A DNA stretch of 47,021 nt from Enterobacteria phage cdtI. The position numbers were made by a program. This document shows, in pieces, positions 27,001 to 33,000 of this stretch. The stretch's first letter is position 1. The number at the start of each line of letters is the position of its first letter. The stretch lies in sequence record NC_009514.1. One strand, written 5' to 3'.

Positions 27001-30000
27001 CAAATTAAAGCTCTTTTACTCTTTCAAAGTCCTTTCAGTTAATTGAGTGCTAATCATATAACTCATTTAATAACATGATGTTATGTGGTTTCTTTAATTG
27101 AAAATTCTTTCATGTAACTTTAAATCGATCAGGTTGCTTTCATCAAAAATCTGTACATGTGCTTGTACATAATGTACAAAACAGCAGAGGTGTTTTTTTA
27201 TTTGTACAAGGTGAGTAATGGCGCTGTCTGATGCGTGGTTGCGTTCAGTCGTTGGAAAGGAACGTGATAAGGTTTTGGTTAAATCCGATCGTGATGGTCT
27301 GTCTGTCAGAGTATCACCGAAAGGTCGCGTAGTGTTCCAATATCGTTATCAATGGGCAGGGAAAGGTGAGCGCCTTGATATCGGAACTTACCCGGCAACT
27401 GGATTAAAAGAGGCCAGAGAAGAAGTTATCCGTCTCCGTGGTGAACTCGAGTCAAACCGCAATCCACGATTAGTCAAGCAGGCTGAAAAACGAAAAGCTA
27501 CTGAAGCCATGACGGTAGAGTCTGTGATCCGTGCCTGGTATGAAGCATATTGTGTAAAAAATAAAAAAGGTTCTGAACAGATACTCCGCTCGTTTGAGCT
27601 GCACCTGTTCTCTAAAATCGGGAATATCCCTCACGATGCAGCTACATTGCATGATTGGTTAGAAGTCCTGGAGCCTCTTAGCACTAAGACTCCAGCAATA
27701 GCAGACCGATTGCTAATTAACGCAAAGCAGGCCCATGTCTGGGCGTATAAGAGAAAGCTCATTGAAACTCGCCCGCTGTCGGATATCACGGGTAAAGATA
27801 TGGATATCCGTAAAGGTCAGAAGAAACGGTTTCTGGCACATGATGAAATTAAAATCCTTTATGCTGCGATCGATGGTTCTCGAATGGTTCCTAAATACCG
27901 GGCCTTCATTAAACTATTGCTGCATTTTGGCTGCCGTAGTTCAGAGCTAATTACCGCTAGGGTGGATGATTTTGATTTCATTAATAAGGTATGGACTGTA
28001 CCGCCAGAACGACATAAGACAGGGGATATAACAGGCGAACCGCTAAAGCGCCCCATTATTGAACCGGTTGAAGAGCTTATAAAGTACGTTATCTCTATGA
28101 ACAATGGTTCCGATATGCTTTTTACTAAGGAAGGAAGCAGGGAACCCGTTGGCCGGACATCATTGCAGTCGCTGCCTTACAATTTAATGCAGTACGCATG
28201 GCGGCGTTTGGGGTATCAATTCCCTCATTGGTCTCTTCATGATTTGAGACGAACAGCACGAACAAACTTTTCTGATCTTACTGCACCTCATATTGCAGAA
28301 ATAATGCTCGGTCATAAACTGCCAGGGGTATGGCAGGTTTATGACAAGAGCGATTATTTAGATGAACAGCGTAAAGCTTACCAGGCATGGTGGGAGAGAG
28401 TTGAATCGATAGTTACTTGTACTTGTTCAGACTAGAACTGACATTTTGCATAGGCAGAACGCAATTATGCATATTGCGGTATAATCCCCTTCTTAAAACT
28501 GTAAGAATTGCTTGCTAATCCTTGCAGTTTTTGATTATAACATTTTTATTTGTTTATTAGGATTTTTGATGGAACTGTTACAGGAACACGGGGCGATACT
28601 TAAAGTTGTAATCATGCCTACTACTGGGGAACAAACCATAATCCAAGGTTTCGATACTGGCCTCCTCAACCCAGAGATATCCAACATTCTTTTTTTATTG
28701 GCCAAAACACCAAAAGAAATTAGTGAGATTTTTGTCAATGAAAATGATAACTTTCAGCCTACTCTAAGCGGGCTAAATCCTATTTTTTTAATATCTAAAG
28801 AAAATCTTGAAAAAATACCAAATATTTATCAAACGCCATTTTGCTTAATTTTTTGTGCTAAAGAAGATTTTTCGTATGTTTGTGCTTTAAAAAAACATTT
28901 TGCTATACCACCTATAATTTGTTGCAATTCTAAACGCGCTGATCTACCACTTAATAAGATTAATAGTATATACTCATTTGATAAGGTGCTCTTCTCTCGG
29001 TTGAAATTCATTGAGGATAAAATAAGAAAAAATCACAGTGAAAAGAAAATATCAACGAAGTTGAAGCGAAGAGGGGCTTTATTTAATAAATCACCTTGGA
29101 GATCGACGCTTAACAATTCAACACTACCCAATGAGTTGTTAATTGAATCACTTGGCTATATGCTATCTCCACCAAAAAGAATTAAAGATGGTAGTAGCAA
29201 AAGAGAGTTTATAGAAATAATACTTCATAGCGTTGATGCATACACCGAATGTTTAAAGGAATTAGATATACCACTTCCAACGGAAGTCTTACTTTTTGCT
29301 CCGGGTATGCACTCTTTTTTATATGATAAAAATAATGACTTTTATGAGTTAATAACGGAAAATTTATCCACAATTGAGAAAAAATTCCTTATTGATGGAG
29401 TGTTGAGGAATCCAGGCTATTCTGGAATTAGACTTGATATAAATTCAGATAGAAAAGAACTTTTTAAAAGTCCTGCTTTCCGTTACCTCACCTCACTAAG
29501 ACGCGCTGAAATGCGATTAACAACAGCTGCGATTACTTTATTTAGCATAAATAAAAAAATCCCAGCAATAAGATTGCCAAATGCAATAAATCATTACTCC
29601 AATTATTTGAAAAATCTTGAAGATCTTGCAACTTCTTCTGGGATAAATAGTGAAGCATTCATCACTAAATCTAAAGCATTCAATACTGTTATTCGAAGAG
29701 CCCTTGGTTGCAAGTTGAGAACATATATAAGTAAAAACTATAGCGATTTGTCCTTTGTTTGTGATGTACCATTGGATTGGATTAGGTTTAATAACATACC
29801 TATAATGTTCAGTCATGAGATATCAAGAATAAATGCTACGCCTGGTAACGTTCTTCTACAGAGCACCTCTGCTTTTCCGCGCGTTTTAGTAAAAGCATCT
29901 GAGTTGAGAAAGGTTTTAGTTATACGTTCTTTTGAGCCTGATGATCACTTAAAGTTCATATTAGAGAACGCAATTGAGATATTTAAAAAACAGATGCCAG

Positions 30001-33000
30001 ATCTTGATTGCGAGATTATTGATGTTAGATCGAAAGCTGAGTTTATTGATGCTCTAAATCAATATCAAGGTCATATTCTTGTTATGGATTGTCATGGAAA
30101 CCATGATGGCAATGGGAGTCATGGATGGTTAATAATAGGTGAGGATAAAGTGGACACTTGGAGTTTGAGAAAAATAGCAAGAATTCCTCCTATCGTAATT
30201 CTGAGTGCATGTTTAACATCTGCCCTAAGTGGTTCTCATGCCTCTGTTGCTAATGGCTTCGTTATAAGTGGTGCATTAAGTGTCATCGGAACATTACTGC
30301 CTGTAAATGCGATAGACTCTGCTATTTTTGTAAGTCGGTTGATCTACCGGTTTTACGAGTTTCCTTCGACGCTATCTACAAATTTTACACATGTTAATGT
30401 AAGGCTTTTTCTTTCTGTTTTTCTTAGGATGTCCTATGCAAGCGATTTAATAAGAGGATTTTTATCTGAAGATTTGATACCGAATAATTCATGGAAGAAA
30501 GATGCAGTTGACATTAACATGTATATAAACATGCTTCACCATGATTGGTATGATTATGTAATTAACAAATTGACGATGTTAACGGGGCTCACGAAAAAAG
30601 ATGTACTTGATTTTATCGATAGAAAATTATTCATAACCGAAACTATGTGCTATAGCCAAATTGGATTTCCAGATGCAATCACAATTAGTCTTAAAGATTG
30701 ACAACTGTATGTAATAAATATGGCATACTTCCGGCACAGAGCGAATATAACAGATCAGGTTTAGCTCTGTGCCATAGGTGTACCAACTCTCATCTGAGCT
30801 AATGCTCGTTACTCAATAACTCCCGCAAATTTGTAAATCTTGCGTGATGCCCATTTATTTGGGCATGATTTAATATCAGGATCTGGAAAGTCTGGCCTGT
30901 ATTTCTGGCCAGTTCTCCTGTTTACGCTGTTCCAGCGAAGAACTGTCGATACTGAAACTCCACAGAAGTTGGCGACTTGTTTAGTTGTCATTAAGTTGTT
31001 CATTACTTTACCTCCTGCGGCGGCTCCGGTAGCGGCATCCAGTGGGTTACTTTCGATGCCGGTTCTTCCACATCGTCAGTAACTGCCCACCATTTGTTTC
31101 TCGACCAATCGTAATACCCTTCGAAGGTATCGCACTCAGTCCAGCCGTAAGACTTCCCCCAACACCAAACATACTGTTTATCGTTCGGCATTCGCTCACT
31201 ACAGCTTATCCAACCATCCGGAGTTACCGGAGAGTTGCCCGACAGCTCGTTCAACTTGTAAGTCTGGCTTACAGGTTTGGCACCATGAAGCATGGCGGCG
31301 CGGCAGGCGTTCCAGCCTTCATCAAAGCCGACTATGCCATTATTTAAAGACGGAAGAGCATCCGGCACCACCGACACTGGCTGAGCCATATATAGCGGCT
31401 GAACATACCAGCCCTTTGATAACCAACTGTCAGCAATGTTTTTGCTCCTGGTTATTGCCGGAATACCTAAGCCATTGTCTGAATGAAGCCACGCCACCGG
31501 CTCTGCTTCCAGTGATGCCAGAGCAATTTCATAAGCAAGGCGCTCAACATTGTCTCGCACGTCTAGGCTGCCGATTCGTTCTTTGATTTCTTTAATCTGT
31601 TCCTTATCGGTGTAAGTGGTCATTATGCTCCAGCCTCCGGTGCTTTTGGCATTACTGCCCAGTGAGTGATATTAATATTTTCAAGGTCCCCGATCTGAAA
31701 TGTCCACTGCCATTCTCCGGTTTCTTTTTGTCCCCAGGTGTACCAGAGAGAACGCCAGCCAATCAGCCAGCCTTCTCCGTTAGCATCAAATAACAGAACA
31801 CTTTCATTTGCTGGTGGCAGTTCAACTGATACTGGTATTACTTTGTTTTCCTGTGCTGCACATTTAGCTTCAAGCGCATCGAATTTACGCACCAGGTATT
31901 CAGCATCCGTTTCATTCACTTTCAGGTCTCGTGGTACACATCTCCCGTGAAGAAACCCTTCCATTTCGAAAACATTCATGCGCATTTGCGTAACTCCGAT
32001 AACTCGTTAAAACGTTCCATAAACATCCCGTAGGCATGGCCCGGAGCCAGTGGAATAACTTTGAACATCTCTGTTGTCGGGATACCTTCCAGTACTGGCC
32101 AGAAAGAGCCATCATCAAGCCCGAGATCGCGGCGTTCAGTTGCCAGCATGATGAGATCGGCATATTTCACAGGCGTGCTCATAACCGGGGGTAACCCGTA
32201 TTTCTCACGGATTACGGCGTCTATTTTTTCTTCCATCCGTTTATAGTCAGGAAGAAGGCGTTTCAGTGGAGCGGGGATGTCCTGACAATACGCTTCTGTT
32301 GCATCATGCATTAACGCTTCAAAAGCAAATTCCTGCGGTACCAGCTGGCTGCAAAGCACCGCATGTTGGGCGACGCTGTAGAAGTGTGAAAGATGTCCTG
32401 CAAAGCGACAGATATTTGAAAGGGAAACCGCGATATCGTTAATCACGATGTCGTCTTTATTTATCTTGTCATAATAAAAATGCTTCCCAGAAAAAGTTTT
32501 AATAAATGACATTTTGTTCTCCACGTATATGTGCTGCACCACGCTGAATTCTGGTAAAAGGAAGCCCTCACCATCCGGCGATTATTGAGTCGATTATGTT
32601 TCCATAAATGCCCCCGCAGGGGCATTTGCAGTAATGAAATCAGGCGCTGAAAGTACCAATGAAGGTTTCTACTTTGCTGTCTTTGAATTTCTCAACAAGC
32701 AGATCACGAAATTCGTTAGCCATTTCTTCCTGCACCGCTTCCAGCTGAATAATGCGCAGAACCAGTACAGGACGATCGCCAGTGATAATGCTGAGGCGTA
32801 ATTTAAACGGACGTTCTTTCAGGCCTTCAAACGGAACGCATTTAAATTCAAATGCCACTGGCATAATGTCTTTGGTTTTCGCTTCGACAGACTCCATCAG
32901 AGAGCGTTTGCCGCTGAAGTCATTATCTTCAAAATCAGCGGTCTGGTTCGCTTCAATCGTGATTTTACGGACCGCCGCAGCCGCTTTTGTTGCCTGAATG

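Follow-up and report, generated by a model that had tools for sequence, protein, structure and literature searches.

Borvo is an anti-phage defence system that consists of a single gene, bovA. When cloned with its native leader, it protects Escherichia coli MG1655 against several phages (Millman et al. 2022; bioRxiv 10.1101/2022.08.27.505566), and the defence takes the form of abortive infection, in which a culture infected at high multiplicity of infection collapses or arrests (Stokar-Avihail et al., bioRxiv 10.1101/2022.08.27.505566). Phages T5, SECphi4 and SECphi18 escape Borvo by means of missense mutations that fall within the proofreading cleft of their DNA polymerase, and the wild-type SECphi4 DNA polymerase, expressed alone, is toxic only in cells that contain Borvo (bioRxiv 10.1101/2022.08.27.505566). 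Escape mutants of the phage polymerase include T13, E91, D176 and F223S. Here we describe a gene for a 710-amino-acid protein in the genome of Enterobacteria phage cdtI (NC_009514.1), of which the whole stretch of 47,021 nucleotides, called the window below, was analysed. We are confident that this gene is bovA, the sole gene of Borvo, carried as a moron cassette between the integrase gene (int) and the excisionase-like gene (xis) of a lambdoid phage that converts its host with Cdt-I, Cif and NleH.

Several other proteins with a CHAT domain or an abortive mode of action offer useful comparisons. Csx29, the TPR-CHAT protein of the type III-E Craspase, has a TPR N-terminus, is activated when the gRAMP-crRNA complex binds target RNA and cleaves Csx30, whereas BovA is a stand-alone protein that responds to phage DNA polymerase, and its N-terminal 300 residues have no TPR and give generic alpha/beta fold matches. 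With the NCBIfam Csx29 model NF041237, BovA scored 14.6 bits against a cut-off of 300, which places it outside that family, and no gRAMP/Cas7-11 gene is annotated in a closely related prophage, an association that was not tested separately. In SAVED-CHAT (PDB 8tl0), a SAVED sensor binds cyclic oligoadenylate and forms filaments; the N-terminus of BovA, in contrast, has neither SAVED nor another Pfam domain, only a generic alpha/beta fold. Separase, a eukaryotic CHAT-type protease of clan CD, is much larger, is regulated by securin and Cdk1, and has no sequence similarity to BovA beyond the active-site motifs. In its mode of action BovA can be likened to Lit, a prophage-borne latent protease which one phage protein sets off, with death or arrest of the infected cell as the outcome. 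However, Lit is a zinc metalloprotease that cleaves EF-Tu after sensing the Gol peptide of T4, while BovA is a predicted cysteine protease of the caspase clan.

Identity with the verified Borvo gene

The gene was assigned as follows.

28569..30701, plus strand: bovA (710 amino acids plus stop), which by itself makes up the anti-phage system Borvo (PADLOC BovA profile PDLC03831; identity to verified BovA)

The PADLOC profile matched the protein from end to end (E 2.3e-241, 801 bits), with residues 4-709 aligned to positions 3-715 of the 720 in the profile. The entry for SG178 in the supplementary table of Millman et al. 2022 gives it as 'Borvo', verified, from Escherichia coli 403116, with an insert of 2569 bp, and lists its protein as BovA, a 'CHAT protease' of 710 amino acids (IMG 2646127138). 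The part of this source that can be compared with the window comprises the first 399 nucleotides of the insert and the first 399 residues of BovA. Within it, all 399 bases were identical to the window from position 28435 onwards (a 134-nucleotide leader and the first 265 coding bases), as were all 399 residues of the protein, and both proteins are 710 amino acids long. In leader, coding start, first 399 residues, length and CHAT domain, the gene of E. coli 403116 and that of the window are the same; no difference was seen in the comparable part, and what the window adds is the int-xis cassette of a Cdt-I-converting phage. The exact 710-residue protein is also present in NCBI (BAF63366.1), in JGI/IMG and in other sources. 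Furthermore, bovA was found in 32 of 5426 complete E. coli genomes with at least 99% identity, under the RefSeq name 'CHAT domain-containing protein', and phage Ayreon carries the same int-bovA-xis block with 99.1% identity.

Membership of Borvo was judged on a full-length profile match, on identity to verified BovA and on the gene standing alone, and all three were found here. The window copy is therefore, for practical purposes, the reference Borvo allele, and the locus is a re-discovery of a system already described and experimentally verified rather than a new one. A preliminary description of this DNA, made from the sequence alone, had located an open reading frame of about 710 codons at 28569-30701, directly downstream of the integrase and on the same strand, and had noted that it is much more AT-rich than its flanks, both of which we confirmed. 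The same description knew of no described single-gene system in this position; Borvo is such a system, a single CHAT gene. It had also stated that its proposal would be refuted if the gene confidently matched a characterised family, and this is what was obtained, in the form of BovA and of identity to the verified construct in all comparable sequence. PADLOC, which it had suggested as a check, is the search that matched BovA over its full length.

The open reading frame was called across 28512..30701 (plus strand) from an upstream TTG, and starting at the ATG at 28569 gives the 710-residue protein. A Shine-Dalgarno-like AGGA at 28559-28562 lies 6 nucleotides upstream of this ATG, which is separated from the integrase stop by 133 nucleotides. 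The guanine plus cytosine (GC) content of bovA is 0.340, compared to 0.452 for int and 0.491 for the window; frames of 2133 bp with a GC content as low as that of bovA make up 0.8% of such frames in the window, and the lowest of them (0.337) begins at 28501, inside the bovA locus.

The sequence in front of the gene is shared with the verified insert.

28436..28568, plus strand: leader of 133 nucleotides, presumed native promoter, identical to the start of verified insert SG178, with TATAAT at 28480-28485 and AGGA at 28559-28562

In the published work the 'native' promoter drove the verified construct (Stokar-Avihail et al., bioRxiv 10.1101/2022.08.27.505566; Millman et al. 2022). Because only the native leader drove that construct, these 133 nucleotides are sufficient for expression on a plasmid, and a promoter belonging to the gene itself, as proposed in the preliminary description, is plausible. 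The TATAAT hexamer reported there is indeed present, one base further on than its 28479-28484. It is no more than a candidate for the actual bovA promoter: no acceptable -35 hexamer accompanies it, a consensus sigma-70 scan did not call it, and the promoter-like sites returned by that scan were fewer than in shuffled sequences.

The other end of the published insert bears on whether Borvo is strictly a single-gene system. The genes flanking bovA are the following.

27218..28435, plus strand: tyrosine integrase of a lambdoid phage, 405 amino acids, the upstream neighbour, outside the defence cassette (Pfam Phage_integrase 1.2e-16, Arm-DNA-bind_3 1.9e-16, Phage_int_M)
30809..31003, minus strand: Xis/AlpA-like helix-turn-helix gene, 64 amino acids, convergent with bovA, a backbone gene (Pfam HTH_17, MerR-like, 3e-4, below the cut-off)

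An open reading frame homologous to the second of these carries the annotation 'excisionase' in phage 2H10. If the 2569-bp SG178 insert, of which the beginning has been compared, is collinear with the window from 28435, it ends at 31003, the start codon of the 64-residue Xis-like open reading frame. The published 'single-gene' insert therefore probably carried the whole of this frame, treated as intergenic DNA. Borvo as cloned could then be a two-part module in which the small helix-turn-helix protein is needed to regulate or assist BovA: an insert ending at 31003 would take in the entire frame, and RefSeq leaves it unannotated in an identical prophage (NZ_CP090611.1), so that it may have passed as intergenic. 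We nevertheless consider this arrangement very unlikely. The 64-residue frame belongs to the conserved backbone, with 92-94% identity in phages that carry different cargo, and where BovA homologues occur on integrative and conjugative elements (ICEs) and islands, neither this gene nor any conserved partner lies beside them; the 64-residue frame that follows the bovA homologue in locus L008 lies on the same strand as that homologue and has no Pfam match. A functional role of the Xis-like frame is unlikely because it is a conserved backbone gene and is absent beside the ICE-borne homologues.

Across the contexts compared (phage, two ICE contexts and one island), no conserved partner gene of BovA was found. 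Distant homologues occur alone on ICEs, next to TraU/TraC in one case and TraI/ArdC/TraG in the other, and beside an SMC-like ATPase. Large genes found in these surroundings encode an 811-residue HATPase_c_3 protein in a Pantoea ICE (L006, 3192-5627, minus strand) and an 881-residue SMC_N/AAA_23 protein (L008, 3052-5697, plus strand); such ATPase-type genes suggest defence-island neighbourhoods.

The CHAT domain and the architecture of BovA

The Pfam CHAT family (PF12770) matched residues 488-591 of BovA with 26 bits, against a gathering cut-off of 24. An AlphaFold2 model built from an alignment of 29 homologues reached a pLDDT of 85.6 and a pTM of 0.86, and the caspase/hemoglobinase alpha/beta fold by which membership of clan CD was judged was found. 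According to this predicted structure, BovA has a CHAT fold of the caspase/separase/Csx29 type. The predicted catalytic residues fall at the following codons.

30093..30095, plus strand: His509, predicted catalytic histidine, in a DCHG motif, invariant, directly after strand E503-508 of the AlphaFold2 model
30210..30212, plus strand: Cys548, predicted catalytic nucleophile, in an LSAC motif, invariant, directly after strand E542-546 of the AlphaFold2 model

His509 lies within ILVMDCHGNHDG and Cys548 within IVILSACLTS, and their placement right behind a beta-strand is that seen in caspases. Both were invariant in the 29 homologues, down to 31% identity, and, together with D507, G510 and G568, in 56 family representatives of 21-41% identity. 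A histidine followed by a cysteine in the order and spacing of caspase/CHAT proteases had been proposed in the preliminary description, and the invariant dyad, the Pfam CHAT match above its cut-off and the strands of the model all confirm it; its position for the histidine (about 30093) was exact, that for the cysteine (about 30208) slightly off.

Searching the Protein Data Bank (PDB) with the single BovA protein returned no match, and the family profile returned weak matches only (best E 0.0096), of which the cysteine motif of TPR-CHAT was the most consistent. The profile places 'viLsAC', which contains Cys548, on VILGAC at chain positions 622-627 of TPR-CHAT 7x8a_D, the last of which, Cys627, we take to be the catalytic cysteine of that enzyme. 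Among the viral structures of BFVD, Foldseek found none that matched BovA at E <= 0.001.

Because the His509-Cys548 dyad is strictly invariant, we predict a live active site. The same conservation bears on whether BovA acts by proteolysis at all, as its CHAT domain could instead resemble that of DdvA-like signalling proteins and serve as a pseudo-protease or scaffold, with toxicity arising because the replication machinery is sequestered or blocked. We assign very little probability to this possibility, given that His509, Cys548, D507, G510 and G568 are kept across representatives as divergent as the 56 examined, as in a live active site.

The remainder of the protein can be divided on the basis of the model and of family conservation.

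28569..29468, plus strand: N-terminal part of about 300 amino acids, family-specific, a generic flavodoxin/REC/MID-like alpha/beta domain, putative sensor or regulatory part
29469..29888, plus strand: residues 301-440, helical and mixed, with conserved RLPNAINH, PLDW, MFSHEISR and TPGN, probably the N-terminal half of an extended CHAT module
29889..30398, plus strand: caspase-like catalytic core of the CHAT domain, residues about 441-610
30399..30698, plus strand: C-terminal helical domain, residues 611-710, with conserved W660 and ETMxYxQxGxP (AlphaFold2 helices 611-686, pLDDT about 90)

No Pfam family covers residues 1-487. When a profile of residues 1-300 was run against 1.84 billion cluster representatives, only 136 proteins were recovered; nearly all of the full-length matches were 680-790 amino acids long and matched at their N-terminus. 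CHAT was present in 44 of the 56 family representatives, another effector domain in none and a SEC-C motif in one. Judged by these sequence comparisons, the N-terminal 300 or so residues are thus specific to this architecture, rather than a sensor module shuffled between effectors.

Proposed mode of action

The best-supported mechanism would begin with BovA being made in the lysogen from its own leader promoter and held inactive. On infection by a phage that encodes its own polymerase, the non-catalytic N-terminal and middle regions may detect that polymerase or something dependent on its exonuclease cleft, be it a complex or a product. Sensing would free the CHAT protease, whose His509-Cys548 site may then cleave one or more essential proteins of the host or the phage, and the infected cell would stop growing or die before progeny are released. 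If temperate phages without a polymerase use BovA as a weapon reserved for such rivals, its N-terminal and middle regions, which are restricted to the family, would constitute a new kind of protein sensor that directly reads the exonuclease cleft of family-A polymerases.

Several points weigh against this mechanism or against the assignment on which it builds. Both the dependence of Borvo on proteolysis and the expression of BovA in the lysogen are steps that we infer, and no data on H509 or C548 mutants of Borvo were found in the supplements of Millman et al. BovA may sense the polymerase either directly or indirectly, and a 2024 paper describes Borvo as 'poorly understood'. No paper on the mechanism of Borvo was found in the literature searched, up to mid-2026. 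The identity of the window gene with verified BovA beyond the first 399 nucleotides of the insert and the first 399 residues is deduced from equal length and from the at least 99% identity of the 32 E. coli copies. Lastly, given that the published insert probably held the Xis-like frame, the strict sufficiency of bovA by itself rests on comparative context.

The int-xis cassette and the carrier phage

The boundaries of the cargo were drawn by blastn comparison with related phages.

28424..30752 (end approximate), plus strand: swappable cargo cassette made up of bovA, its leader and a short 3' tail, the lowest-GC region (blastn against related phages)
L004 1813-3366, minus strand; L005 1813-3367, minus strand; L002 3228-3947, plus strand: alternative int-xis cargo in related phages

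Homology to phage 2H10 and to Stx2c and Stx1a phages runs through int, stops at 28423 and resumes at 30753-30773, with 92-96% identity; in the blastn comparison with 2H10 and one Stx2c phage the identity is about 95%. Since related phages exchange their cargo between these points, bovA and its leader are a cassette of their own, open to exchange, within an int-xis hotspot. The same slot holds a 517-residue open reading frame in Stx2c phages, frames of 438 and 81 residues in Stx1a phages and one of 239 residues in 2H10. Neither Pfam nor PADLOC matched these alternative cargo frames, which are candidate defence genes given that Borvo occupies the same slot. If the slot is a general hotspot for defence cargo, the other genes found in it would be defence genes not described before.

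A prophage in E. coli DCE7 (NZ_CP090611.1), inserted between prfC and yjjG, is 100% identical to the window over positions 21000-26988 and 27000-31200 (about 10 kb). Its two ends overlap at window positions 26947-26988 (42 bases, megablast), which marks the attP core between a dinI-like gene (26458-26706, minus strand) and int. On the other side of this core from bovA lies the virulence region of the phage.

24142-26350: cdtA, cdtB and cdtC, type I (Pfam CDtoxinA, Exo_endo_phos)

The window holds a Cdt-I-converting phage of the lambdoid type. The deposited protein BAF63366.1 suggests that it is the CDT-1 phage which was presumably described by Asakura et al. 2007. Two genes for effectors of the type III secretion system (T3SS), nleH and cif, lie upstream of cdtABC, with names taken from the RefSeq annotation of the 100% identical prophage stretch. 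The virulence block as a whole (21057-26350; nleH, cif, cdtA, cdtB and cdtC) is low in GC throughout, at 0.36-0.45.

It could be argued from this neighbourhood that BovA belongs to the virulence cargo and has no part in phage defence: like Cif and NleH, the two effectors of the T3SS, it would be delivered to host cells, in this case as a caspase-like protease. In favour of this, cdtABC, cif and nleH are low-GC morons of the same phage and bovA is low-GC cargo too. We give this reading next to no credence. In E. coli K-12 MG1655 the identical allele defends against phages and causes a toxicity that depends on the polymerase; the cluster of toxin and effector genes lies on the other side of attP, and bovA has a cassette of its own; and Pantoea is among the bacteria whose ICEs carry homologues. 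An identity of bovA as a T3SS effector was rejected because of the K-12 phenotype in the literature and the homologues borne by ICEs.

With bovA read as the Borvo gene, the natural home of the reference allele is a toxin-converting lambdoid phage, a single element that combines phage defence with virulence conversion. The annotated genes of the prophage in NZ_CP090611.1 include no DNA polymerase, the known trigger of Borvo, which suggests why the carrier tolerates bovA and would explain why it does not trigger its own BovA: a resident lambdoid phage would replicate with the host polymerase and leave the protein untripped. What is new here is minor, namely the exchangeable int-xis setting, the architecture-specific N-terminus and the probable presence of the Xis-like frame in the published insert. 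A broader proposal would combine three claims, that BovA is a dedicated weapon with which temperate phages lacking a polymerase oppose rivals that encode the enzyme, that the int-xis slot is a general defence hotspot and that the Xis-like frame contributes to the published phenotype; taken together we put them forward tentatively, and somewhat doubt that all three hold.

Outside the cassette, PADLOC was run on 21 other open reading frames of the window and on four cargo frames of related phages, and returned only two orphan DNA methyltransferases and sub-threshold noise. A second AT-rich island (42054-43442, minus strand, GC 0.31-0.38) lies between the antiterminator Q gene (41653-42030) and a DNA methyltransferase gene (44075-45127). 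It encodes a 313-residue DUF6731 protein (Pfam E 1.7e-10) and a hydrophobic, probably membrane-bound protein of 147 residues, neither of which was matched by PADLOC. Lying in the Q-lysis moron slot, the two genes are candidates for an uncharacterised moron pair or defence pair. The orphan methyltransferases are encoded at 38462-39115 and 44075-45127, both on the plus strand (PADLOC MTase_II, E 1.8e-158 and 3.3e-152; Pfam N6_N4_Mtase). No restriction partner was detected near either of them, and they probably serve the phage as self-protection against host restriction.

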